Source of the DNA: Lobosporangium transversale
Taxonomy: Eukaryota
Direction: 5' to 3'
Length of the DNA: 41,899 nucleotides
Assembly (NCBI RefSeq): GCF_002105155.1
Contig: NW_019029005.1
Location: 496,001 to 537,899 of the forward strand
This document shows, piece after piece, positions 1 through 36,093 of this stretch. The notes under the pieces are model-generated. The model saw nothing but the letters and a program-made list of their open reading frames with translations, had not been told where the DNA came from and did no database searches. Each line of letters starts with the position of its first letter. The first letter of the stretch is position 1. The translations under genes and the position numbers were made by a program.

Positions 1-1486
1 TTACTAATTTGAGCGTCTCCCATAGAGCTCCTCTGGGCTGGCGATCCCCACCAACCTGCGTCATTTGCATCTATCGTACTTGGATCATGTCCGCAAGCGG
101 ATTCTGCTCGAGAGAAAGCAGCAAATTCGATGAAGACTCCTTCAGACCGATCGGCGAGTCGGCTTAGGCTTGTAGAAGAGACAATAACAGAGCTCCACTC
201 ACGGAGCAACTCCTTGACAACGACGACGTGGAAGAGGAGCTGGTGATAGTACTATGGCAATAGCTATCAGTATCAGGTATTTCCTCCTTCTTGGCCTTGT
301 TTAAACGTGGCAGAAATTGCAATTGGCCTTTTTTGTTCTCAAGTTGACAAGTGATAGGAAAAAAATGACCTTTGCCTTTCTCATCATTTGAACCTTCATT
401 TGTGCTACTCTCATCACCGTCTTCATAAGAAGATCCACTGCTCCCAGTGCTATTGCAGCCTGGCCTCTCCTCTTGCCTTCCTCGCCCTCTTTCCATGGCA
501 AGAAATTACGCCAGTCGTCTGCAACTCTGCGAATTGCCGAAAGTATGCAGAGCCTGGAGAACACTCGCGTAAATTTCTACGAACAATTCTTAACTGTTCT
601 TTCGCAACTTGCTTTTCTTCTTCCGTATAAAGATTGTCTACAACAGCTGCAATAGTAGTGGTAGTGTTGGCAGGCCGTATAGACGTCCCTGTAGCTTTTT
701 TGCGTCCAGGAATACTTCGCTTTTTTTTTGTCTTTTTCGGCTTGCAGTTGCTGCTATAGAATAATGGTCACAGCTTTGGTTTATTGCCGGCCACGGAGCC
801 GATAACCTCGGGGTCCTTGTTGCTGTAGTTTTCTCCTGACTATATTGGCGTTCTGTTGGGATTTTGCATAGGTCTTTCCCTTCTTACTGTTACTACAAAC
901 GCCGTCGACACTACTCGTACTGGCGGTGCTTCCAGAGCGGCGACGTTGATACTGGTGCACTGCCTGTCGAATGCTATAGAGTGGTGAGCGTGTAGGACTA
1001 TTCAATGGACGGGTCGGAAGGTAATGTTTGTAGTGGCCAACATGGTTTCCGTCAAAACCTGATATCATGCATGGAGGCCCTTCTTGAAGAGGTAGAGATA
1101 GTAGTCGTAGAAGTAGAGACCGCACCTAGCGGTGGTGGAGGGCAGTAAGGTGCGTACGAGGATTACATGAGCCTTGTCTATAACGGTGGTAATATATGTG
1201 TGTCTTACGGCCTGTTGGGTTTAAGAAAGCGAGGACTATAAACGTAAAAAAAAAAGAAAAAAAAAAAGAAATAGGGAAAAAATCAGCATGCAAATTACAT
1301 TCTACGTGTCTTTACTTTTCGTATTTTTTTTACCAGTAGATTTTCGTGCCTTTAGATGTTGCTTTTAGTAAGCTTATTGAGCTTCCAACAAATTTGCTGT
1401 CCTAGTGTTGTTCTTGGATGAGATAGACTGTTGCTGGTGTCTCTCGTTGCTTTTGTGGAAGCTGGGATGCTCTGGTACTTGAGCAT
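1..1486 (-). CDS. Hypothetical protein, 5' portion; runs off the window start
   Basis: Candidate ATG at 1486 (MLKYQSIPAST...), a GT-AG poly-T intron near 1236-1333, and protein-like S/T-rich fragments in ORFs 781-1125 and 164-496. No domain recognised. Confidence 0.4.
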
Positions 1487-1943
1487 TGAAGAAGAATAGA
1501 TGTTACGGTATGTTTGCGTGTAAATTAAGTGATAGAAACAAAGGGCAGTAAAAGAACAAGAAGTGTAAGCTAGCGCTAGTGTATGGATAGACTATGGAAG
1601 ATATTCAGCTGCCTGATGTTTGAAGCAAACAGGGAGTATGGTGAAAGCGCTTGTGTACAGTAGAATGAAAAGGGTTTATAGGCAAGTGAGTGAATGAAAA
1701 CGAGAAAGCAGCAAAGCAGAAAAATAAGTAATTCATAAAAGAGAAACGATTGGGAACTGTTTTTCTTCTTTACTAGAATCAAATGACAAACGAAGGGATA
1801 ATATGAAAATAAAGTGAGATAGGCACACCAATGGTAATGAATGCGTTTTGAGCCTTTTCTTTTCGCTGTTGAGATGGCATCGATGCCAGCTGAACCTGGA
1901 AGGGGACCGGTGGAAACAGAATCGACCAGCGAGAGCAGGGCTG

Positions 1944-1978
<35 letters not shown>

Positions 1979-2794
1979 GTGGAGCCGCTACAAATAAGAA
2001 AACTGGTATTATGTCACATCGATTATCAGCATGTCTGCATGATGGAACAATATCAGCATTGCATACCATAGGAGACCCTTGCATTCTTATATTCTTCTTA
2101 GCAAAACCTCTTAACTTCCTCGCTCTTCATATTAATGCCAACACAATAACTTTTTATGCAATTCTACAACTTTCAGCTAATGGTAAGCAGCGTCAAGGGA
2201 TGGCAGCAATAGTCACAACAGTAGTATGCTCATACTCTCATAGGCTCGCATAGAAAAAGAACAAAGTTAAAGAGGATTCTGATTCGATCTATGAAGCATT
2301 TTCATTACCTTTGGTGTGCATCAGACTTTTTCTATCTTTTTTGGTAAAGGTTCTATGTAATAGCATCCGGATGCGTTGGCCGCTCTCTCTGTTCTTTTTT
2401 AGTTGCTTTGGTCAATCACTTTGGGGAGTTTATGTCATTTGGGTTTTTTTGGCCGAGAAAGAGTCGGAGAAGCAAGACCAACACACAACATTGCGGAAGT
2501 TGAATTTTTTAAAAAAAAAACTTGCCCTGTGCGTAACAACGCGTGTCAGGTCACACACGACAATCTGATCAGAAACAGAAGGCTCATTCCATTACAGCCA
2601 CTGAAGAAACAGGACCCATCCTTCCCTTCATCCCGCTCCAGTTGTACATGCTTCGTAAAGTTAGCCGCAACACAGTGACAGCAAGAAGACATATATCTCA
2701 TCTTCCCTGAAGCAGCACCAACTTTGGATATACTCCACCATTAGTTTACGCCTTAAGCGATCAAGTAAGCGAAACTATCTACTACCTCATTTTC

Positions 2795-4262
2795 ATGCTC
2801 GGAATGGCGACTGATAAAACCAGTTCCATTGACCCAAGGAAGAGCAGAATGAAACAGAGTTCATCGCATTCATTTGACTCGGAAGATGATTCTGAATCTG
2901 ATCTTGAGATTGATTTGTCTCCAAATCCCAACGATCGAAAAAAAAGATCACAAAAGGAATCAATCAAAGTTCCGAAACATTTTGGCAAGAGTAACACACA
3001 GGTTTACGACAATATCTCTGTCTACGCTCCACCGGACTCCAACCTCATTTTCAAATGCTCTCAGAAGCGTGCTAACTGGTACCTCTCTCGAAATCTTGCC
3101 CGGCCACTGTCTCCAAATTCGATCCACCTCAACTTTTCACCCGCGGGACAGGGTCCATGTAAATGATCCCCTACCTGGAAGAGCGCGAAAATAAGTGCGT
3201 TATCTGTGGCTTGACTACTGCAGAACTGGTGCGACCATGTTGCACGTAGTTCCAGAACAATACAGAAAATGGTTCCCGATTCGGCTGAAAAGCCATTCCA
3301 GTCATGATATTGTCGTTGCCTGCCCAGAATGCAATGCCAAATGGGATAAAGAAGCAGCAGTTGTGCGCAAAAAGATTGTCGGGCTCTATAGCATACCTTT
3401 AGAAGGTATTGGATGGATTAAAGACCATGAGGCAAGTGTAGCAAAGAGATCTGCCGCTGCAGTGATCACAGAATGAATCGGCGATGGTTGGAGTATCATA
3501 CACAGTATAACCAACAGCAACAACAGCAACAACAGCAACAACAGCAACAAGAAAGCGATAAAGCCAAAAGGAAATCGATTACAAACAACATTGACTGCAA
3601 GCCCGTTACAGGAGAACCCTGGCTCGACTTCAAGAACAAGAAAGACAACAAAAATAAAATGCAGAATGTGATACCCCTTAGAAGAATGCAGGTTCTCGAG
3701 AAGAATGCTTGACTGGGGAATAGTCATCAAAAGGGTGATAAAGAACAATTGATAGAAACATCAACAATACAGAAGCGAGACTCTATGAACGATGCTGATG
3801 ACAGGAAGAGCCACGAAAAAGATGAAGGTTGATGATATTGATACTTCAATCCACTTCGCTTGTACCTTCAACAGGATTTCCAATACGAAGGAAACGATCA
3901 AAAGGCGAAAGGGGGAGAGAGGCACAGATAGAGGTCCGATTTCACCACCAGGAATACTCCACACATTAAATAGGACTATTCTAGACGGCAGCAATGGCAG
4001 CACAGGCAATATATAAAGGGCCGGACTACAAGGAACATGGCCAGTTAGTGATTGCGCGGGTGATGGCATCTTCGCCTGAGTTTTTTAGGATGCGGATGAA
4101 ACTCCTGGGACGATACGTCATGGAAGGATGCTGAACCATTGGATCCTGCTCCGGTAGGATGGCAAGATATTTCGGCTTTTGTCGGTCGTGAGACAGGCAT
4201 TCCTAGAACGAGCTATGCCACAACATCTCAGTTCACAATGGAGAGTTGAGAATCCTGTGTAA
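2795..4262 (+). CDS. EXD2-like C-terminal HNH/zinc-domain protein without a recognisable 3'-5' exonuclease domain
   Basis: Fragments read across frameshifts: VYDNISVYAPP..FKCSQKRANWYL, ENKCVICG, HVVPEQYRKWFPIRLKSHSSHDIVVACPEC, HGQLVI, and RQAFLERAMPQHLSSQWRVENPV*. These match the EXD2 C-terminal region from my recall of the family. Confidence 0.8.
3510..3550 (+). repeat. CAA/CAG polyglutamine tract within the EXD2-like gene
   Basis: Directly visible CAA/CAG run. Confidence 0.85.
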
Positions 4263-7758: not shown

Positions 7759-8096
7759 GCGAAATTGAGTTGATCATAGGAACAGCATTGGTGGGGTAGA
7801 CGAGAGACTATGCCCACCTGTGATCTCAAAGTTGATTGAATTGAGCGAGTTACACGTAGTGTACCAAGTCAGAGAGTCTACTTTGAGTTGTGAATAACTC
7901 AAACTTGTATTTTTATTCCTTTATCTAACTAACCCTTAACTAAAGTTCAAGTGACTGTCCCTCCAAAAAAAAAAAAAAAAATAATAAACAGTCAGTGCTT
8001 GTTGCTTGCCATGTATTTTTTTTTTTTTTACCACACGCCATTATAAATCTCCCCATCCATCGTCGCATACTTCTTGTCAGTCTTCTACATTTACAT

Positions 8097-9373
8097 AATA
8101 ATACCGACGAGGGTACGTCTTTCTGACCAATGTGTTGCTCTAATATACACATCCTAGCCTTTCGCTTTATCTCTTGAGCCCAAAAGGAGGAATAATAATA
8201 AAAAAGAAGAGACACAATAACCAAGCTAATCATGGACTTTATCTATGTTGCAACTCATAAAAAACTGTAGTTATTGGCAGGTTATCAACCAACAATTTTG
8301 CTCATACAAAGTCAAGTAAGTCTAGGGTCCAACATAATATAGATTCATACAATATCAAAGATATAAATGTTTGGTTGATTTCATGAATAAAACCTATAAT
8401 TTTGGCCTGGTTCGGAGCACTTGTTTTGCTTCACTATATTAACTCACTTTTTTTTTCCTATTATACTTATGCCTCATCTTATCAACGATTGGATCATTGG
8501 AAAACCAAATAAACCAAATAAAACCAATAAAAACCAATAAAAAAAAAATAAAAAAAAATCAGGACACCAACAGGGAATTTTTGCAGGAACGAATACAATG
8601 CGACGGGTCTCTGCAACCGTCAATCCTGCCCTCTCGCCAACTCTCGATACGCTACAGTTCGTGAGCAGAATGGAGTGATCTACTTGTTTGTGAAGACACC
8701 TGAACGAGCACACTCACTGCCAAGTGGGAGAAGATCAAGTTGTCCAAAAACTATGCACAGGCACTGGAGCAAATTGATAAGGAATTGATCTACTGGCCTA
8801 ACTTTTCGATCCACAAGTGTAAGCAGCGTCTGACAGAGATTACACAATACTTGATCAAGATGCGTAAACTAAAATTGAAAGCGGATGAGAGACCCAAGCT
8901 GGTAGGGATCAAGAAAAAAGTTGAGCGGCGGGAGGCCAGGAGAGAAGCCAAGGCAGAAGCTGCAGCGAGATTAGATAAGGCGATCGAGAAGGAGCTACTG
9001 GATCGACTGAAGTCACATGCATACGGCGATGCACCCTTGAATGTACATGAAGATGTTTGGAAAGAAATTTTGGAAGGCGAGAAGGAGAACTAGAGATTGA
9101 TAGTGATCAGACCGATGAAGATGACTCACAGTCAAAGCAGAGGAGGAAGAGGAAGAGGATGAAGAACGCGAGTTTGTTTCGGATCAAAGCGAGGATGAGG
9201 AAGATATGGAAGACATGTTTGAGAAGGAATATGAGGTAGGCAATCATTTAGTAACGCTTTTTTTTTTTCTTTTTTTTTATTCGATGCACCATCGTTTATA
9301 TGGTATGGCTATATTAATCATAACATTTATCTTTTCAACGTAATTCTCTTAGCACGAGACTGTGGCTCTATAA
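8097..9373 (+). CDS. MAK16: MAK16, 60S ribosome biogenesis factor (multi-exon; start approximate)
   Basis: [14 protein letters not shown] | [77 protein letters not shown], followed by an acidic tail. Confidence 0.95.
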
Positions 9374-9547
9374 ACAATTTTTTTTTATCGTTTATCATCA
9401 TTTCGACAGCCATACATACATATCCATCATAGCCACCGTGAAACATATATATACATATACTGCATTGAACGACAAATAATAACATTATAGCAAACAATGG
9501 CTTAAATGGAAACAGCTTGAAATAAAAAATAAATAAAAAATAAATAA

Positions 9548-9582
<35 letters not shown>

Positions 9583-9585
<3 letters not shown>

Positions 9586-9781
9586 CATGGGAGCGTTCTG
9601 GTTGGAAATCTTGGATGTGATTTGTCTATCATTAATTTTTAACAATGAACCTTATTATCTGTTGATCTGTACGGTTTTTAAAGTTAGTCCGGAAATTCAG
9701 GGGCAAAAGATTAGAGAGGATGGAGACGAAAATAAACAGAACTTACAAATTTTTTGTGGGTGTGCCGGCCCAATATTGTGT
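9583..9781 (-). ncRNA. Putative omega/guide-RNA or 3' UTR region of the Fanzor-like gene
   Basis: Positional inference only: TnpB/Fanzor guide scaffolds lie at the gene 3' end. The region ends in a GCTC-CCAT-GAGC hairpin followed by a T-tract on the minus strand. Confidence 0.25.
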
Positions 9782-12700
9782 CTAGCGTCGTGCGCGCTTT
9801 GCAGCCGGAGCAGGCGACTCTTCCGTGGGCTTGTACTTTGCAGGCCTCTCTTGTCTCTCAATTTGAGCAAGACCGATTCTTGCGATGTTTTCCGCCCCTA
9901 CTGCGTCACGGTCGAAGAATACTTACATGCCCGGCAATATTTAGAGCGAGGGTACACCGTCTCTAAAAAGCTATCCAGAGGGGTCGGGGACAGCGGGCGC
10001 TGGTGTAAAATTCGTGCGCTCCTACAGTAAGTGTCCTGCCTTTGACCTAAGTGTTTCAAATGGCAGTCGTTTATTAGCAAGGGTTCTATGGCTTTCCAGC
10101 TTTTCTTACTTTTTTAAAAAAAAGCCATACCTGTGTGACAAGATGTCTCGTTATAGCAGTGTGCTTGCTGGGAACTCCTTTACTACTTTCAAAGGACCCT
10201 AGGCCGACGACAAGCACTCCTTTATCCCCAAGCATCTTCAACACTCGCTGTACGCGTAGTCGAACGTAGCTCGTTGAGCCTTTCGTAGGTCCCATTTTTT
10301 TTTCAGGATGCCATCTGGATTCGTAGAACTCTTGAAGCACATCCAAATTCGTTGATCCTGTCTGTGTCTGAGACTCCTCGTTCATCCATTGAAAGTACTC
10401 ATTATACGTATCCCTTCCAAACACAGGGATGGCGCTCTCAACCTCAATCATTCCTTTTTCACGCTTCCTTTTGTTCAACAGGTGATTGAAGCGGAGGACG
10501 GGAGGTACAAGAACCTGCTTCTCACCTTTACCGTTTGCCGCAAGTTAGGGTTGTGAGGGTCCAGCGAGGAAAACGTAAGGGCGTTAACAATACCAGGATC
10601 ACATCCGACGATAGTTGTGGTGTTTGCGGATGGGCATCGCCCTGGTTTGTTGAATGTGAGCTCAACGTTTTCAAGCAGCTTGGAGCTCCTCTTCCAGTTT
10701 ATGTTCTGTAGTCTTCATCTGTTAGGTCTTCACCGGCCGCCTTTGAACACGTCGTGTTGAGAAATCCCTGAGAAAGCTCCAGTTCTTGGCTGGGGTCTTC
10801 TTCATCTACGTCAGACTGCTGCTGTCTCTTCGTCTGGGTTGTGTCATAGGCAAGTAGATTCAGAACTAGACCGTTGGTAGAAATCGTTCCTTTGAGTTTG
10901 AACCGAGTTAGATCTTTGTCCTGTGACTGCAGGGATACTTTGTCTTGATATCCACGAACCATGCGATCACCTCCAATGTCACAAAAGAGAGCCTGTATCA
11001 AAACCCCTTTTGTTCCCTGTACACACTCATACATTGCAGTCTTGGAAGGATTATTGAGAGGCAGAATACGCTCCAGCAGCTGCTTGGTATCTTCGTTCGC
11101 CCAGAGGATGTCAACTAGGGCGTGTTCAGACAGATACACATACCCGGGTGACCAGGGGACGTAGGAAAGTCTGAGTATTTTTTCACTTTTTTGTTCTCCC
11201 GCAAAAAAAACTCAATGTCGCTCATATCTTCGTTTGTTTTCTCGACATCAAACTAGAAAAAAAAAAAAAAAAAAAAAAAAGTCTGAATAAAAAAAAAAAA
11301 AAAAAAAAAAACAAAAACCATAAAAGCTATACCATTGCGTTCCTGTAGTGCTGCCTTAATGATGTCTGTACTTGGCCCATTAGTAGCTCTGACGCTCTTG
11401 GAAATGTGATCTTTTTGGGATCAAAGCCTTGACGTCCCCCAATGTGATGTCTATTTCCTTTATTGGGGAAAGTTCAGTGGTGGCCTTGAAATGTTCATAA
11501 GCGAGGGATGTGGGGCGTTTCTACCGCCTTTCCTTGTTTTTTTGCCCTCGCGTAAGCTGAATTGGGGCCACCTTGACCACTCAAAAGAAGGGTGGCGAGA
11601 CGGAAGGAATAATCATTGCTATCCAAGACCTCGTCCAGTGCCTTTTTCCTCGACTTTGCTGCCCCTGGTAACCGCATGATCCTCTCAATGTCCAAGGCAA
11701 TCGCCCAGTATGCATAGCGGCGTAGTCGGTTGAGGACAACAACTGCCCCTCGGATCTGGCTTGCAATACTATCCCTTTCATCTGCGTCCAGTCCGCCTTT
11801 CCTTGCCATGGAGGCCTTAAGGGACCCAATTGTTAAGGCCTTGATAGGGTCTTACTGCTGTAGCTGTGATCAACCTTCGTAGCATCCTTCAAGTTCCTAA
11901 TTGGTGCACCTTCTTTTTTGCCCTGTGGGGCTTCTTGCCTTTGTGCTTCCGCTTTTGTTTTTTCTGTTGCTTCTTTTTTGCCTTTCTCCGACGTGGTGGA
12001 TGCTTAAGGCCCGGCCTATCGTGCTGACGGCAGTTACTGATATCAACTGTGCGCCCATTCAATATGCTCGCCTTGTCAGAAAAGATGGGCCGGAACTGGT
12101 TCCTATGTGACCCTTCCGCTATATAGAATGATGGTCGCCTCTACATTATTCAAGAAAGGGACTAACGATTAGTATTGGGGACGTCTGGTTTCAAGGCCAA
12201 AAACTATAGCTTGAGCTTTCTTACGTTCTGCGGCGCTGCGCTCGCCTTTGCTGAGCCATTCTATGGCGAAGATCCTTTCCATTGAGTAGACGCTGCTTGA
12301 AGTTATCGAACTCATTGTTCGATGGTAACGCTTGGGCCGACGTTTGATGGCCGGAAGTAAAAATGCGGAGAGCTACACTGAAACGGCCTTCCTCAGAGGC
12401 TACGTTCCTTCCCAACACCTTACTAGCTTCCCTTAGGTAGCCGAAGCATTTTATTGTAGTTCTGTTCCACGCAACCTTTCGAATTAATCGAAGATTATTA
12501 ACGGGCCTAACGTCTCGAGGTTCCTTGAGTAGTCATTGCCTGCGATGGCACAGAATAACACCAGATGCGCGTGTGTTGGCAGTCTTAGTGCTTGGATAAC
12601 GTTGTCTACGTCGTAAACCCCAAACTTCCGTCTACGGTGCGGAAGGGGTCGCACTAGGAAGCAGACTCGTTCGTACGCAAAAAAATCAGAGTCTTGGGAT

Positions 12701-13255
12701 ATCACGATCCTATCATTCTCCTCATCATGGCACCCTATGCATGGGTCCGCTTCATATGCACACAGACAGACATCGAAGACAGAACTAAGGCCTGTTGCCA
12801 GCTGATCCTTGTCCTGGACGCTCAGGGTGTGGACTTCTCGAAGACCCTTCTGGATGCGCCTCATGACTTGAGGACGAGTCCATACCCCACTCCGAGAATT
12901 TCTCTCGAAGGTGCTCATATTGTTCTCCAAAGCGTCCATATTTTTTTGTCTTATGGCTTGCCGTTCTGTCCTTGCTTTTTCTTTCTCAGTACAAGGTTCC
13001 CCATCAATATGTATAGTCAGTTGTCCGTTGTGAAAAGATCCTTTATCTCGAGTGCCAGGGACCTTCCTACATCAATGATGGTTTCGTTTTTCATCTTTGC
13101 ATGGACGACTCTGCGGAGGATGTCGTAATAGAACGTACCGAGGAGATCTAAATGAACAGAATGGTCAGGATTTGCCGCCAAGAAATGCCCACGTCAGTTT
13201 CCGAAGGTAAAACCCCGCGATCCGCAACCAGTTTGAAGAAGGACTTCAGCCCCAT
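9782..13255 (-). CDS. FEN1/XPG-like PIN nuclease fused to a TnpB/Fanzor-like RuvC nuclease, about 1,075 aa, with 3 coding introns (12224-12141, 11332-11253, 10130-10047)
   Basis: N-terminal: MGLKSFFKLV, HLDLLG, IHIDG, YEAD, ISQDSDFF, AIAGNDYSRNL. C-terminal: GTISTNGLVLNLLAYD, IVGCDPG (D at 10598-10600), AHEFYTSARCP (E at 10011-10013), YCRAC, FFDRDAVGAENIA (D at 9905-9907), PAAKRARR*. Assembled across several 1-bp indels. Confidence 0.85.
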
Positions 13256-13315
13256 GGTCAATATCTAAGCGAAAAGAGAAAGAAAAAAGGAAAAATGGTG
13301 GTATGAAAAGAAATG

Positions 13316-13350
<35 letters not shown>

Positions 13351-14479
13351 GACAAAGGTATAAAAGGATGAGCTTTTTTATGGTGTAAAGATTCAAAGCG
13401 AATAGATAAAGAATATTGAGGGAAAGATACAGGAACAAGTGGCAGTGGTAAAAGGGATGGGACTTTGAAGGAGGAAGACAATGATCCCTTTTTATATCCT
13501 GGATTGATGATGAGTTTTATCATTGTCTCATATAGTTTTGATATCGATCCTTTGCTTCACAGGCCACATCAATCTTTATTCAGTTCCTTTGTTTGGATTG
13601 GGGTTTTGTCCCAGTCAATAGCAGAGATTGAAAATAAATACAAGCTCTCGCATGAACGAGATTGGAAACAATAGCATTGAGATACCAAAGTAAGCATTCG
13701 AAAAATATATATAGCATATTATACTCGGTAGTTTCTAGGTGAGGCGGACCCACCTATGACTACAAAGGGCTTTGCGCAAAGATTCTGGTTCGACAGATTA
13801 GTGGATACAAAATAAACTGAAATTAATTTTAATGACCAGTCACGTCACACCACTTGCAATAACAAGCGAGTCAATTAGCTGCCAATACATTTAAGAGTAT
13901 TCAAAAAATATAAGGGATCCCGACCAAATGGAACGGGCTATACTTTAATTTACTAGGTCACGTCTATGATGCACTAGAGATTTAAATTGTGAACTTGATC
14001 TCTGTTCACTTCCAATTTCTTCTAGGCCTTTGCTTTCGTTTCTTTCATTTATTATATCGATATTATTTTTTGCATTGCCATGGTCGCTACACGGTCCACA
14101 CGTTCGTCGTTGTCTGCTGCGCTTTCACCTCCCACAGGGTCGACAGCCATTTCTCAGTCGAGCGGCCCATATCTGGTGTGCGACGTACCATCCGAGCATG
14201 GCGACCCCGGCAGGTCGTCTCACATACCGCCCAAGCACAACCTGTGGGGTTTGAAGAGGAATTACCAGGCCAGTGTGTGGAGGATGCGGAGGATGAAGAG
14301 AAGCTGTATGACAGAATCTACAGCTCCATAACGAATTCGCCCTACTTGATTTCCTTGAACAAGAAAGTGAAGAGAGGGAAAAGAAAAAAATTGGAGGAAA
14401 GAAGACGTCAAGAAGAGGCAACAAGAGTTGAGATTGGAGCAGACTAAACCAATTGGCCACCAATATGCTCTGTAGTGCA

Positions 14480-15046
14480 CAGCAGTCAGTCAGTTATATT
14501 GGCCAAGATAGCCTTCAAGACCCTGAAGCAGCAGTCAAAGCCCATTATCCTGTGAAATATCTGAACAAACTTAGTCCGCCAGGCTTGCCTCTATTCAACT
14601 GGAGCTGAGAGTCGGTCAACCTGTCATTTATTTCGCAACTTGAGCCCAAAGTGCGGATTATGTAATGGCGCCCGCATGGTTGTATGTGCGTTAGACACAG
14701 GAATGATCCAGACTGAGAATACTAATGGGCAATATCAAGGAGAGCGTGCCTTCATTCTTCCGCATACCGCTTACAACGGTCGATGACCACTCTTCCCCAA
14801 TCATGTTCTGCAGATTCCAGTTTCCAGTCAAGTCAGCCTTTGCCAAGACAATTAACAAGTCAAGGATAGACACTTAAACATGTCGGTGTTTATCTTCCTT
14901 AAGACGTTTCCTGTCATGCCCATCTCTACGTTGCCCTATCACGATGTACAGACCCAAACAATCTTGAGGTACTGATCGGAAACGGCAAGATAGAAGGCAA
15001 GGCTGGGATATACACGCGGAACATTATCTTCAAGGATGCTTTGTAG
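14480..15046 (+). pseudogene. Helitron-type Pif1 helicase, C-terminal remnant
   Basis: HYPVKYLNKLSPPGLP..LELRVGQPV..RNLSPKCGLCNGARM, FQFPVKSAFAKTINKS, VGVYLP, HAHLYVALSRC, YTRNIIFKDAL*. The N-terminal helicase motifs and the Rep domain are absent. Confidence 0.88.
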
Positions 15047-18195: not shown

Positions 18196-19720
18196 ATGAA
18201 TCGTCGTCAAGGAAACCAGGATCCTGAAGGCCGTGTGGGCACAGCAGCTTTACCACCATATCTATTACGTCTCTTTGCACCTCGCCCACCACTGCCCTAT
18301 GCAAAGCCACTTGATCGTGAACCGGGCAAGAAAAATGAGTCACGGTTGATGGGCATAGCACAATACCTAGAGCATTGCAAAGACCATGATACAAATTATG
18401 TTCCAACACTGAGTATTGCAGAGCAGAAGAAGAAGAAGGTACTTGTGCTATATCATAACTAGAAAGACCGGCACAATCGAGATATCCTATATTCTTTGCA
18501 TGTCAAGTGACATTTATCCTGTCAGGGACATCTTAAAAAATGCAGCTAATAACAAGACCTTTGGCCCTGCTTAAATAGATAGAAGAGCGCGAAAGAAAGG
18601 CACAAGAGGCACTCAAGAAAGGATTAGAATCATGTGAGGATAAACCTCGTTGTCGAGAATATGCATCTTTTTTACGCTTTTTTCATTTTTACCCTCAGAA
18701 ATTTTAACATTTCAATCTATAATTTGTTATAGGGGATCCAAATAAGGACGAACTGGTTGTTGGTGATCCCTACAAGATTACATATCTCCCGGCTTGTATG
18801 ACCACTGACGAGCTCTGCTTTCAATAATTGGTCGTGTTTGGTGTTTAGTACTAACTGTGAATTTCTTTTTCTTTGGAACACATTAATGAACGGGTAGAGC
18901 TATGACTGCACAGAAAGGATCTTAGAAGAGAGTTTTCGATGTATGGGAATATTGAAAATGTAAGTCGTATTACGTTTGAGTAATCAATGTTTATACAGGT
19001 GAATGTGTACATTTGAAAAGTATTTATGATACATGTTATTTAGCATGTAACAGCTTTATATTTATACGAATTGCTCTTTCACCCACAGATTAGAGTTGTG
19101 AGAGACAAGGAAGGGAAGTCGAGGGATATGCATTTATTGAAATTTGAGCGTGAAAAGGACATGAAGGCAGCAACAAGGATGCAGATGGTATCAAAATCCT
19201 CGGACGCCGTATTGTCGTTGATGTAGAGCGCGGTAGGACAGTAAAAGGATGGAGACCCAAACGCCTTGGTAAGTAATTTTAATCGTTTATCCGGACACAT
19301 TCTGCCCTTATACCTTATCGCTAACAGACCACTGTCTATTGTTTTTTAACTTTATTCATATTTAGGAGGAGGCTTGGGTGGTAGCGTATTGGAGCACCTA
19401 TCAGAATCAGACTTCTTCAGGAAGAGACAATCGTCATGAGAGGGAACGGGAACGTTCTCGTGGAGGTGATTATCGGGATGGGCGTGGTTATGGAGGACAT
19501 GGTGATAGAGACCGGATTGATAAGCGCCGACATGATGATCGCAGTCGAGGCGGCTATAGCGATCGATCGTACGAGCGCGACTCCAAGAGACGCAAGAGTA
19601 GGAGTCGCTCTAGAAGTCCAGGCATTTCGTCAGTAGGGGGATTGGCGGAGATTATTCAAGGAGCCGCCGTGGCAGCAGGGATTGATCTCTCGGCTTGATC
19701 GCATTAAGGAAAGATAAGAC
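18196..19720 (+). CDS. SNRNP70: U1 snRNP 70 kDa protein (multi-exon; ends approximate)
   Basis: [31 protein letters not shown], an RRM ([40 protein letters not shown]) and an RS/RD-rich tail. Confidence 0.95.
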
Positions 19721-20512: not shown

Positions 20513-23223
20513 ATGTTTACATTGCAATGGAGGAGTCTAAAGCTTGGGAATGTTCCCTCTGTGCTCAAGACTAGATCAGCAATTGGAAAAGGGCAGCTCC
20601 GACTCTGTAAGACTCACTATATTAGTAGGCTTGATAAAAAGTAAAAAAAAAAAATAAGGCATTGAAAAGAACACTAACTCTCATTAGTCTGACTTTTGCT
20701 TTATTATTACTTCTGGCATGCAGCTTCAACAGTGTTCGAAAAGCGTGCTCAGGCATTTACTCAGGAGAAAGTTAGGCAGGAAGAGCTGAGAAGGAAGGCT
20801 ATCAGGGATGGATCTCAACCTACCGCAATTGAAATTCTGCTTCCTGACAATATCAGAAAGATCGGCACAGCAGGATTACCACACCACTGGAGATCGCTCA
20901 AGGTTAGGATCTAGGAACTACTTAGTGAACAAGTGAAGGCAAGGTTATATGGGCAAGTCATTGACACAAATACTTTTTTAGGCATCTCTGGGAAATTGGC
21001 CAAGAACACTGGTTGCACAGCTAAATGGCACCACATACTGGGATATGACCGACCATTGGAAGAAACATGTCAATTAGAATTAATTCCCTTCCAAGAGAAT
21101 AACGACCGCCTAACTTCGCTATTCTGGCATTCATCTGCACATGTTCTTGGCATGTCTCTTGAGGCTAAATATGGACCACGCCTTCTTTTATGTGATGGCC
21201 CTTCTATCAAGCAGGGGGGTTCTTTTATGAATTTCTGTTGACAAAGCCTGGCAGGACCTTTCAAATATTCCATATCTGAATTGTTGAAACAAATTATCCT
21301 TCCCATCAATTCTCAAAAGAAGAAATTTGCCGATATCCAGAAAACTGATGCTTCAATTTGTTGCTCAGCGATTGCCATTTGAACGCTTGTCTGTCTCACA
21401 AGAATTTGCTTACAATTTATTCCCAGAGAACAAATTCAAGCAACATTTTATTGAGAATATCCCTGCAGATAACGAAATCACGCTCTACAAATGCGGACCT
21501 TTTGTTGACCTTTGCAGAGGTCCCCATGTTCAACATACAGGACAATTACAGGCGATAGAGATCTTGAGGACTTCGAATGCTTATTTTATGCCAGAATTGG
21601 ATCGGGATCCAAAATCGCCAAACACTGACTCGGATGTATGGGATTGCATTTCCTGTGCCAAAGAATTGAAACAATGGCATTATCAGAAAACTGAAGCTGA
21701 AAAGAGGGATCACCGTATTATTTGGCAAGAATCAGGGGCTATTTGCAACACATCCAACAAGTCCAGGATCTGCGTTCATGTTGCCACATGGAACTAGGAT
21801 TGTAGAGAAGCTGATGCGGTTTATGAGACAGCAATATCGCAAATATGGCTTCGAAGAAGTGATGACCCCATTGATGTACAAGAAGGAGCTGTGGGAGACT
21901 TCGGGACATTGGCAGAACTACAAGGACGATATGTTTCAGGTCCAGCGTGGATGTAGTCATGGACATCACCATACTGGAAATTCAGAATTAGCAGAAGAGC
22001 ATATGAAGTATTTGGACTCAAGCCAATGAATTGTCCTGGTCATTGTTTGATTTTTGATATGTCGAACCGATCATATAAGGATTTACCTATTCGCTATGCT
22101 GACTTTAGTGCTCTTCACAGGTATGCTGCTATCATTAGCTTTAAAGTCCTCCTCATATTTTTGGTCTTATGTTTTATTATGTTCTAACACTGCTCTTCCT
22201 TCGTCTGTATCCATTGCCACGATCTAGAAATGAGGCCATAGGCTCTTTGACGGATTGACCCGTGTTCGACGTTTTCATCAAGATGACGCCCATATCTTTT
22301 GTACTCGCGATCAAATCTTCCAAGAGATCCGTTCAACGCTATCCTTTGTTGATACTGTATACAGAACTTCCGTTTCCCATCCTATGAACTTGCACTGTCG
22401 AACACGCCGCTCACCAACTATATGGGCACGACTGAAGACTGGAATGCCGCAGAAGACTCACTCCGTCAGGCATTGGACCAATCGGGGCTCTCCTGGTCTG
22501 TTAATGAAGGCGATGGTGCGTTTTATGGACCCAAGATTGATATTCTGGTCAAAGATGCGCTCGGTCGACGGCATCAGACTGCTACGATTCAATTGGACTT
22601 CCAGTTGCCACAGAGATTTGGATTGGTATTTCAGGATCAAAAGGGTGAGAAGCAGACTCCTGTGATTGTACATCGTGCAGTGTTAGGAAGCGTGGAGAGA
22701 ATGATGGCGATTTTGATTGAGCATACAGGTGGCAGGTGGCCATTCTGGATCTCACCAAGGCAGGCCATGGTTGTGCCAGTGTTTGGAGGCAAAGCTGCAG
22801 AACAGGGAACAGTAACAGTAGTGATGAAGGTTACAATGGTGAAAAAAGTGAAAGCACAACAAACCATGGCGAATCATTAATAGGATATGCCGCCTATGTC
22901 AAAGAGACCCTGGCGAAAGCAGGACGAACGCCAAGTAATACATCAAAGTATGCTATAGGCAAGCAGTTAGAAACTGGAAAAGATCCCGTTGTTGCGATGG
23001 ATGACAAGCACTACTTTGTGGATATTGATCAATCAGGAGGAACACTCAACAAAATGGTCCGAGATGCACAAGTAGCTCAATATAACTTTATTTTAGTGAT
23101 TGGTGAGAAAGAGAAGGAGCGGTGCACAGTGAATGTACGGACGAGAGAAGGAGAACGATAGGTGAGATGACAATACCAGAAACTCTCAAGTTATTCAAGG
23201 AGCGTGAAGACTTGTTTATGTAG
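20513..23223 (+). CDS. Threonyl-tRNA synthetase, probably mitochondrial, with editing domain
   Basis: [83 protein letters not shown]. The N-terminus ([11 protein letters not shown]..) is R/K-rich and lacks acidic residues, suggesting a presequence. Confidence 0.93.
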
Positions 23224-34266: not shown

Positions 34267-36093
34267 ATGAATGCCTCTAGTAGCAGCAGTAGTGGTAGTA
34301 GTAGTAGTAACAACAGCATGAATACGTCTTTCATGTCATCTGTTGGCGAAGTAAGAACTTGCAAGTTTGCATGCAAATTACATGTCGGAAAAAAGAAAAA
34401 GCCTTACTAATGAATTAGTTTCGCCTTTTTTTTTTTTTTTTTTTTTTCTTCTTCTTCTTCCCTTTAGTCCTCTACTAGCAATACAGTTCATCATCAAATA
34501 TGGACAATATAATCGATTTAACAATACCTACGCCTGCTCGGATCATTCATCCCAGGACCTTACCAAGTGAAAGCGTCGAAATCATTGACATTCCAAGCGA
34601 TGACGAAGCACCACCCTTTCACTTAACTTTAACCAACGTTCAGGAACTACGGCGTCCAGATGGAATAATATTATAACCTTTATTGATGAACACGACACCA
34701 CAAATAGCGCAAGCAGCAGTTCTAGTAGCAGTGTCCCAACAACAACAACAACAACAACAACAATAATGGTGCCACCAATGTTAGATACGATGACAATGAT
34801 GATGTTCAAATTGTAGCAGAAATTCCTGGACGTTCTTTAGATCCCTCCAATCCTTCTTATGCAAATGGATCTTCTACAAGTAGGAATGCCACTAGGGCAA
34901 CCACGGCAGAAGACCTTCCCTATTCCACCTCTGTCCCTCAATCCCATCCTTTGTCTTTCCCCAGCCTCTTCGATTTCTTTGAAAACAATAGCAATCCCTT
35001 TTCTCGATCAGAAAGACCGCAACAACAAAGCGATCGACGTCGTCCATCGGAATCAAGGGTAGCTGAAGGTGTTATGGAACATCGTGATAGGATTTCAACA
35101 CCTGAAATGGCAACATCAACTACTGCAGGAAGAAGTGGAGTAAATACTGGAGGACGTGCCTCAAGAAGATCCCCATTGCGGCCACGGACGCAAACACCAA
35201 TCGGCCGGCAAAACTATCCAGAGCATACAACACATCCTCTGTGGCCTGACCATTGGGGCGATACAGATTATTCAGACCCTTTATTCAGATGGTTTCACAT
35301 GGACAGCCTTGTCCATGGCATCAATTATAATCCATTAACATTTTCTAGACGTCCTTCTCCTCCTCGCTATCATCATCGTCATCATCATCGTCATCATCCA
35401 TTTCAAGGTGGAAACCTTCGCTACCGTCACGCTGCTTCAGATGTAAACATAGACGAATACCTTGCTAGGTTAAGCAATATATTCGACAGCTATATCACCC
35501 CCGGTATTGGTGGTCGTGGCGGCAGGGCAACGTCGTCAACCTCATCGGATAACGAATCGTACCTGAACAAACCCGCAGTTGAACCTCGACCAGGCTATAC
35601 GAAATCGCTCAACAAGAATGTGACTATAGCTTGTCCAATATGTCAAAATGAGCTCGGACATGCTGGCAAAGAGAATACAAAACTCTGGGTGCTAGTTGGC
35701 TGTGGACATGTCATTTGCGATGAATGTATCGAAGGAATCTTTATGACCAAGGTGGCGATCAAATCTAAAGTCGCATCCAATGCTGCTACGACATCAATAG
35801 GGATGGCAGCAACATCGTCACGAAGACAATCGATCTCGAAGCGATCAGTCATTAAAGGGAAGGCTAAATGGACGGCACCTATGCCTTCGCTAGCACCAAC
35901 TAATGGAGACGAACAGTACATGGAGTCAGGAGGCAAAATGACAGAGTCAAGCGTGAATGTGAATCGTGGCACTGACACTGGCCCTAGTACAGATGGCAGC
36001 GGAACGTTCAAATTGGTCAAGCGTGCTACAGGTCAATGTCCCAGTTGTAATCGTAAGATCAAGAAGACAAGCGTGCAGCAACTGTATTTGTAA
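34267..36093 (+). CDS. SIM-containing RING protein, SUMO-targeted ubiquitin ligase-like (Slx5/Rfp/RNF4-type)
   Basis: SIM-like VEIIDIPSDDE, NIITFIDE and DDDVQIVAE. C-terminal RING CPICQ..GCGHVICDEC..CPSCNRKI..QQLYL*. Confidence 0.75.

Follow-up and report, generated by a model that had tools for sequence, protein, structure and literature searches.

A Lobosporangium transversale gene that joins an EXO1/FEN1-type nuclease to a Fanzor1 protein within a multi-copy element

Does a single fungal gene encode two different nucleases, and what could a Fanzor element gain from the second one? The question is raised by a stretch of 41,899 nucleotides (nt) from Lobosporangium transversale (NCBI RefSeq assembly GCF_002105155.1, contig NW_019029005.1, positions 496,001 to 537,899, forward strand), hereafter the window, in whose numbering all positions are given. 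An earlier interpretation of the letters alone (the sequence-only reading) had proposed one minus-strand gene at 13255-9782, in which a FEN1/XPG flap nuclease is fused to a Fanzor/TnpB-like RuvC module. Both fold assignments held in profile searches and structural comparison. Judged by protein comparisons, the fusion of a PIN-type nuclease with Fanzor1 is real and defines a large fungal clade that is common across Mortierellaceae.

Gene structure and the two nuclease halves

Once missing bases are restored, the gene at 13255-9782 (minus strand) has four exons and encodes a protein of ~1,080 amino acids (aa); its spliced length is 3,226 nt as read in the window. Its parts are as follows (X7 is a public sequencing run described below).

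12225-13255, minus strand: exon 1, EXO1/FEN1-type PIN 5' nuclease, ~345 aa, with helical arch and helix-two-turn-helix (H2TH)
12141-12224, minus strand: intron 1, GTAAG..CTAAT..TAG, 84 nt, at the PIN/linker boundary; an X7 contig omits 12135-12225
11333-12140, minus strand: exon 2, FYxA..NQFR linker motif, K/R-rich stretch resembling a nuclear localisation signal, first WED strand and Fanzor1 REC lobe
11253-11332, minus strand: intron 2, 80 nt, with poly-T; an X7 contig (record 27) joins 11246 to 11333
10131-11252, minus strand: exon 3, REC/WED (STNG strand), RuvC-I GCDPG, bridge helix, and RuvC-II GLGSF without the canonical E
10047-10130, minus strand: intron 3, 84 nt, at a position common to loci L001 and L003
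9782-10046, minus strand: exon 4, relocated E (HEFYTS), C4 zinc finger (TNB), RuvC-III D, basic C-terminal tail and stop

All nuclease motifs quoted in the sequence-only reading were located, in order, on the minus strand. The PIN side contains MGLK (13255), DLLG, DG..EK......R, EAD, DSD and GNDY, and is followed by STNG, GCDPG, HEFYTS, CPRP, CxxC and RD..GAENI, with the stop at 9784-9782. The extents and the splicing of the gene had to be revised. The PIN motifs had been assigned to the first ~255 aa and are there, but the PIN exon spans ~345 aa; the Fanzor signature had been assigned to the last third and is there, but the Fanzor part, with its WED, REC, RuvC and TNB regions, occupies the last two thirds. 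Instead of one intron we found three in the coding region (12224-12141, 11332-11253 and 10130-10047) and a probable fourth in the 3' untranslated region (UTR). An intron at the place equivalent to intron 1 was present in L003, and the position of intron 2 was common to L001, L003 and L005. If intron 1 were retained, a stop would follow directly after the PIN domain.

The N-terminal half was recognised by a profile of 90 sequences of the PIN head, which matched FEN1 (7e-17), Rad2, XPG and EXO1. A profile of 40 family members matched both FEN1 (1e-14) and SpuFz1 (2.3e-8), and the motifs are therefore not due to chance. With Pfam, the window fragments yielded only XPG_I, below cut-off (E 0.0064). 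The predicted model of a PIN paralogue that is 91% identical to the window exon (P0001; predicted local distance difference test score, pLDDT, 87.7) was closest to human EXO1 (Z 22.1, root-mean-square deviation 3.2, 278 aligned residues), followed by FEN1 (Z 20.5), XPG (18.9), XRN2 (15.7) and GEN1 (15.2). The PIN core with helical arch and H2TH was present, and the PIN exon contains seven acidic residues and two gateway residues (P0001 numbering). In an alignment of 90 rows, with gapped rows excluded, these were D37 in 55 of 56, D85 in 84 of 86, E169 in 83 of 90, D171 in 90 of 90, D189 and D191 each in 88 of 90, D242 in 87 of 87, K92 in 86 of 87 and R99 in 85 of 87, that is, 92-100% conservation among the PIN rows with a residue at the position. 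The PIN head is thus predicted, from its conserved active-site residues, to be a catalytically intact EXO1/FEN1-type 5' nuclease. Its EAD pattern is presumably of the EXO1/XPG type rather than the FEN1 type. It shares with EXO1, FEN1, XPG and GEN1 the catalytic core, the seven acids, the gateway K and R, the helical arch and H2TH, but is only 12-18% identical to the solved members, continues into a Fanzor instead of a partner-binding tail, and is carried by a multi-copy element. The atlas clusters nearest to the PIN half were the giant-virus XPG and poxvirus G5 families (0.95), whose FEN1-like nucleases are, however, stand-alone viral genes; in a review consulted in part, G5 mutants are described as defective in double-strand-break repair (PMC9415595).

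For the C-terminal half, the fold was measured on a fused relative, P0037, rather than on the window protein. P0037 is 42% identical to the paralogue P0006, and its model had a pLDDT of 75.4 and a predicted template modelling score of 0.63. Residues 327-1051 matched SpuFz1 with Z 17.4 (root-mean-square deviation 3.6, 469 aligned residues), PpFz1 with 16.8 and GtFz1 with 15.6, while all Cas12/TnpB chains scored at most 13.1. PF07282 was found in the C-terminal part of paralogues. The RuvC is of the Fanzor type: the canonical E is replaced (GLGSF), a relocated E precedes the C4 finger, and the last acid is in RD. The triad codons are D at 10590-10588 (GCDPG), E at 10013-10011 (HEFYTS) and D at 9907-9905 (RD..GAENI); the E of HEFYTS aligns with DEYKTS of SpuFz1, which by offset is E541. 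In a 40-row alignment, again without gapped rows, these residues were conserved in 26 of 28, 13 of 14 and 17 of 18 rows. Sequence and modelled fold together indicate that the C-terminal half is a complete Fanzor1 with an intact RuvC triad.

We class the protein as Fanzor1 on its Fz1-type fold, its D/relocated E/RD residues and its place in a eukaryotic multi-copy element with spliceosomal introns; the relocated-E criterion was taken from parts of PMC10530073 and of the review PMC13565253. It shares the WED-REC-RuvC-TNB fold with SpuFz1 (Spizellomyces punctatus), PpFz1 (Parasitella parasitica) and GtFz1 over ~470-480 aligned residues, and its element resembles theirs in being multi-copy, without a transposase of its own and with a short non-coding 3' end. 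Unlike these proteins it has an additional N-terminal nuclease of ~345 aa and a basic linker (~1,080 versus 638-849 aa), and unlike their elements this one had no detectable terminal inverted repeats (TIRs) and has a probable intron in the guide region.

The reading frame switches ~17 times between 13255 and 9782 by our own count. We compared window positions 9000-14000 with four public sequencing runs, including X1, X5 and X7. No run was recorded as RNA; X7 was taken as RNA by guess, because it removes a GT..AG intron of the neighbouring Mak16-like gene. There were 38 indels relative to these runs. Nine of the 12 listed are coding (9975, 10252, 10499, 11154, 11850, 12135, 12501, 13019 and 13185), and each is a single base that is present in the main short-read contigs, absent from the window and coincident with a frame switch. 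The single-copy flank likewise had 2-3 gaps in ~240 nt with zero substitutions relative to short reads; the window assembly is therefore deletion-prone, and most of the ~17 frame breaks stem from bases that the long-read assembly dropped. The sequence-only reading had let the fusion depend on there being no true stop near 12484-12220. The stop at 12484 follows the base missing at 12501, and that at 12221 is a TAA within the intron-1 donor, which is spliced out in an X7 contig. One X1 contig (11511-12363) crosses the PIN/Fanzor junction with three gaps and one substitution. X7 contigs omit introns 1 and 2, joining exon 1 to exon 2 and exon 2 to exon 3, in separate contigs that are perhaps from different copies; neither intron 3 nor the 3'-UTR intron had a joint among the listed X7 contig joints. 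X7 depth was higher over the Fanzor half and allows no ranking of the halves.

Some further observations concern the reading of this locus. X7 contigs omit 142 nt at 10284-10427 (plus strand) with GT..AG on the strand opposite to the gene, a possible antisense intron, and 112 nt at 11530-11643 without splice signals, probably a deleted copy. The longest stop-free frame in the whole window is 454 aa, and single-base deletions are frequent, so broken genes in the window need not be pseudogenes.

Distribution of the family and published record

A search with the PIN half gave 387 representatives at E <=0.001; the counts below use the best 150 of these 387, 146 of which were new. Among the 20 relatives of at least 750 aa, 19 matched the family Fanzor hidden Markov model (HMM), which 18 of the 19 had helped to build, and 14 matched an HMM built only from C-half paralogues. 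The sole miss was an unrelated repeat protein. Eleven of the 19 PIN matches of 450-749 aa also matched the Fanzor HMM. Many shorter matches begin with MG and end within 260-390 aa, and are probably first exons or fragments. Homologues with both halves, proposed earlier as a check, were found in the 19 long relatives and in an independent metagenome contig, L003 (gene 288-4247), where one gene holds both halves and the three introns are placed as in the window. Of 20 matches whose names were sought, 16 came from Mortierella, Linnemannia, Benniella, Entomortierella, Actinomortierella and Dissophora (Mortierellaceae), and four carry no organism.

The closest named proteins were split L. transversale gene models with 57-100% local identity (four PIN-half models, and 24 of 25 C-half matches), which may share their assembly with the window and do not count as independent evidence. 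P0004, P0021 and P0029 bridge the two halves. A search with P0096 matched only itself, and no PIN-Fanzor relative was detected in two viral-contig scans.

Trees of 16 fused proteins (a quick tree in the case of the Fanzor half) resolved into three main groups that agreed between the two halves; one long-branch row was left unplaced. Two members, L003 and P0043, were mosaics that combine a PIN of group B with a Fanzor of group A. In L003 the PIN scored 225 bits to P0145 versus at most 79 to group A, and the Fanzor scored 573 bits to P0075. The L003 mosaic alone could be a mis-assembly; the mosaics suggest that the PIN head was exchanged between lineages while a head was retained. Several diverged lineages occur per genome, as in Entomortierella (P0070 and P0144).

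The sequence-only reading knew of no characterised fusion of this kind. Our search agrees in that the architecture went unremarked, but census tables already include proteins of the family as Fanzor1. We searched full text for Fanzor with XPG, FEN1, EXO1, PIN and flap terms and found no PIN head described on a Fanzor; figure S1B of Jiang (extra Fanzor domains), Repbase and subscription papers were outside reach. There was also no PIN, XPG or flap domain on a Fanzor in the consulted parts of PMC3627910, PMC10432273, PMC10530073, PMC10711439, PMC11423790, PMC10691335, PMC13565253, PMC5499597, PMC9415595 and preprint 10.64898/2026.06.03.729735. In the table of Saito 2023 (PMC10432273, seen in part), the L. 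transversale C-half of the family (ORZ22893.1) is given as FZ1, and 14 of the 18 MG-starting rows examined are, by eye, PIN-headed Mortierellaceae FZ1. In Table S2 of Yoon 2023 (PMC10711439), 17 of the 21 rows examined are PIN-headed by eye, including Lichtheimia (Mucorales), and a chytrid has a partial head; the range beyond Mortierellaceae rests on these published tables. PIN-Fanzor1 sequences are thus already in public lists, and their architecture is unremarked in the literature searched.

The multi-copy element and its 3' region

Depth over the gene was ~10-20 times that of the flank in three DNA runs. In X1 the main contigs had 127-181x versus 9.3x for the flank, and in X5 ~1,100-2,500x versus ~117x. 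From contig depth we estimate roughly 10-20 near-identical copies, a tentative figure, since summed depth is not recommended for such counts. The mobile element around the gene is young, multi-copy and ~4.3 kb long, and contains this gene only. The following features were assigned outside the coding exons.

9655-13956, strand not assigned: multi-copy element, ~4.3 kb; low end good to a few bases, high end somewhere in 13891-13960
9655-9790, minus strand: 3'-end stretch, with a depth edge and loose contig ends at 9655 and no Rfam match at gathering score
9667-9746, minus strand: probable 3'-UTR intron, GTAAGT..ACTAAC..CAG, 80 nt, inside the candidate omega-RNA region
13919-13956, plus strand: weak Helitron-like end, imperfect hairpin followed by CTAG (13953-13956), next base G instead of the usual T

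At the low end, depth drops at ~9655, where two X7 contigs run on into unlike sequence. The high end was set by one read comparison, in which a contig at single-copy depth begins at 13891 and extends past 14000. No transposase ORF (open reading frame) was present within the ~4.3-kb element. With the high end uncertain by ~70 nt, we detected neither TIRs (the best inverted match between the ends scored 18, versus a shuffle mean of 19.5) nor a target-site duplication (TSD; the longest direct repeat across the flanks was 7 nt of A/T), in which the element differs from TIR (DDE) transposons such as Spu-1. Helitron-like ends are weak, because the base after CTAG is G and hairpin-plus-CTAG sites at <=-4 kcal/mol occur 12 times in 84 kb of strand, or ~1 per 7 kb. 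The other end of the element reads A|TC at 9657/9658 on the plus strand, and no RepHel gene was found inside. A decayed, frameshifted C-terminal part of a Pif1/Helitron-type helicase (14565-15043, plus strand; PF21530 above cut-off) was considered as the transposase of the element and rejected, since it lies in apparently single-copy flank (X5 record 16).

Several observations on the ends stand apart. A 6-bp hairpin with CTAG on both sides at 13989-14025 (plus strand), just outside the element, is a second candidate end that is unsupported by depth. In all four runs a contig matches only upward from 13719 and continues below in unlike sequence, as would a second family or variant with the far end of this element. 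The 3' and 5' non-coding regions share a 33-nt direct similarity that is AT-rich and was reached in 1 of 200 mononucleotide shuffles. In L004, a 5'-truncated copy of the L001 element (7965-8819) is fused to host sequence immediately past a T-rich stretch. The elements CRe-1/2/3 (Helitron2) and MCi-2/MCi-5 of Bao and Jurka 2013 (PMC3627910) likewise have spliced Fanzor1 genes, fixed 3' ends and 5'-truncated copies in the parts seen, and, with 1375 and 1212 aa, the proteins of MCi-2 and MCi-5 are likewise of large size. Their N-terminal excerpts, however, had no PIN motifs by eye, and CRe and MCi elements have TSDs, whereas none was found here.

The stop lies ~125 nt from the end of the element. 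An Rfam scan of this region gave three weak matches only, far below gathering score. The probable intron begins with GTAAGT 36 nt after the stop in the window and 27 nt after it in L003 (GTAAGT..TAG), and in both AGA|TA occurs a few bases past the acceptor; GTAAGT itself is found at 14 sites in the window's 84 kb of strand. Two Mucor elements in the supplement of Bao and Jurka, as far as seen, also have GTAAGT soon after the gene end by eye (PMC3627910), so a 3'-UTR intron may not be special to the PIN-Fanzor1 family. A short hairpin follows the stop in three loci and was better than shuffles only in L001, where the 3'-UTR intron is missing and the hairpin at the stop is 7 bp long (z -2.9). 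Stem-loop 1 of solved Fz1 guides has the same length in the consulted part of Xu 2024 (PMC11423790).

Possible roles of the tethered nuclease

We lean slightly towards a model in which the element, through one protein with Fanzor1 and an EXO1-like nuclease, spreads by guided cutting of empty sites, followed by 5' resection by the same protein, which would favour copying of the element. By homology to Fanzor1, an omega-RNA made from the element 3' end plus flank would guide the RuvC to the empty allele, and the cut would be staggered and dependent on a target-adjacent motif (TAM); SpuFz1 leaves 5' overhangs (PMC10432273, consulted in part). The tethered PIN would then remove the 5' strand or 5' flaps, and the exposed 3' ends would shift repair away from end-joining and towards copying of the element by homology, either as homing or as restoration after excision; PIN may also trim flaps where the ends are joined. 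To reach new loci, the element would depend on a transposase supplied in trans, for which a Helitron is a weak best guess. An end-processing role, suggested already in the sequence-only reading, stays conjectural, but the PIN head is closest to the resection enzyme EXO1. Homing was proposed as a Fanzor role in the discussion of Saito 2023 (PMC10432273), among the parts seen, but has not been shown in eukaryotes. A large natural Fanzor1 clade with a retained, even swapped, EXO1-like nuclease points at the repair step as a limit on homing. If the model is true, PIN-Fanzor1 is a natural version of engineered nuclease-plus-exonuclease editors, which steer repair towards deletions or homology-directed repair.

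Several points weigh against this model and the fusion beneath it. The host has its own resection enzymes, so that the benefit of tethering another is hard to see; the many dispersed loci call for more than homing; and RNA guiding, TAM use and cleavage are attributed to this protein by homology. Shuffled sequences fold at least as well as the candidate omega-RNA of the window (z +0.3 and +1.4; -0.85 for L003). The linker is basic and predicted to be disordered (pLDDT <50 at 275-312 in the P0037 model), which leaves a docking of PIN on the cut site hypothetical. Eight PIN matches of 450-749 aa had no Fanzor match, and 107 of the 146 were shorter than 450 aa, only six of which matched the Fanzor HMM; some of these short matches could possibly be free-standing PIN genes. 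Some family members in the seen part of the Saito 2023 table look degraded in PIN motifs by eye. At the locus, no single contig covers the entire gene, only 12 of the 38 indels were listed, and collapsed copies hide whether the window copy itself is intact.

One alternative dispenses with the transposase: the two nucleases would be the whole mobility machine, with the Fanzor opening a new site, PIN resecting or trimming, and host repair synthesis copying the element into it, starting at the fixed 3' end. The apparent lack of a transposase, TIR or TSD within 4.3 kb, the diverged lineages per genome in Entomortierella and the 5'-truncated copy joined to host DNA (L004 versus L001) agree with it, as do Fanzor families without TIRs whose 3' ends are fixed and whose 5' ends and TSDs vary (CRe-1/2/3 and MCi-2, in the consulted part of PMC3627910). 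C-half models also outnumber PIN-half models by 24 to 4, a hint only, as the queries differed. We nevertheless consider it unlikely: a flank-derived guide targets the old empty site and not new ones, non-autonomous Fanzor elements without transposase are common (Spu-1; PMC10432273, in the part seen), and possible Helitron-type ends and a second family sharing 13719 onward fit mobilisation in trans. Its broader form is just as doubtful, namely a transposase-free class of eukaryotic transposons in which an RNA-guided two-nuclease protein cuts and resects the site, host repair copies the element in, and the spliceosomal intron of the guide region times guide production.

That the PIN head acts on RNA, trimming the omega-RNA 5' end out of the mRNA or removing R-loop RNA to recycle the enzyme, is rather improbable. 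Both EXO1 and FEN1 digest the RNA strand in RNA:DNA hybrids, the fold is also that of XRN2 (Z 15.7), and a eukaryotic Fanzor must free its guide from the mRNA 3' UTR, all of which we counted for such a role. The DNA 5' nucleases, however, score well above XRN2 (Z 22 versus 15.7), the H2TH motif for duplex DNA is retained, and PIN-less Fanzor1s make guides according to the parts seen of PMC10432273 and PMC11423790.

That the protein is a destructive cutter, combining a cut with long resection or deletion and aimed at rival elements or viruses, or that the host has co-opted it as such, appears quite improbable. The likeness of the PIN half to giant-virus XPG and poxvirus G5 would suit this reading, as would the viral atlas clusters that follow the family's own for the whole protein (scores 0.76) and the viral FEN1-like models that were slightly better than human FEN1 in Foldseek (1e-11 versus 4e-10, from different libraries). 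The many near-identical young copies and the truncated copies, however, look selfish rather than domesticated, and neither a guide array, a viral target nor a relative in the two viral-contig scans was found.

A decayed pseudogene, or two adjacent genes with the fusion an annotation artefact, would account for the ~17 frame breaks and the split L. transversale models, but is very improbable, because the main short-read contigs restore the frame, unique flanks show the same indel rate, and P0004, P0021 and P0029 bridge the halves, with long fused relatives in six genera and in L003.

Neighbouring genes in the window, all on the plus strand, include the Mak16-like gene (8704-9470), whose intron at 9233-9351 is spliced in X7, a gene at ~18600-19700 that we take from its motifs to be U1-70K-like, a class II, threonyl-like tRNA synthetase gene (21288-22877) and a RING-finger gene (34729-36090).

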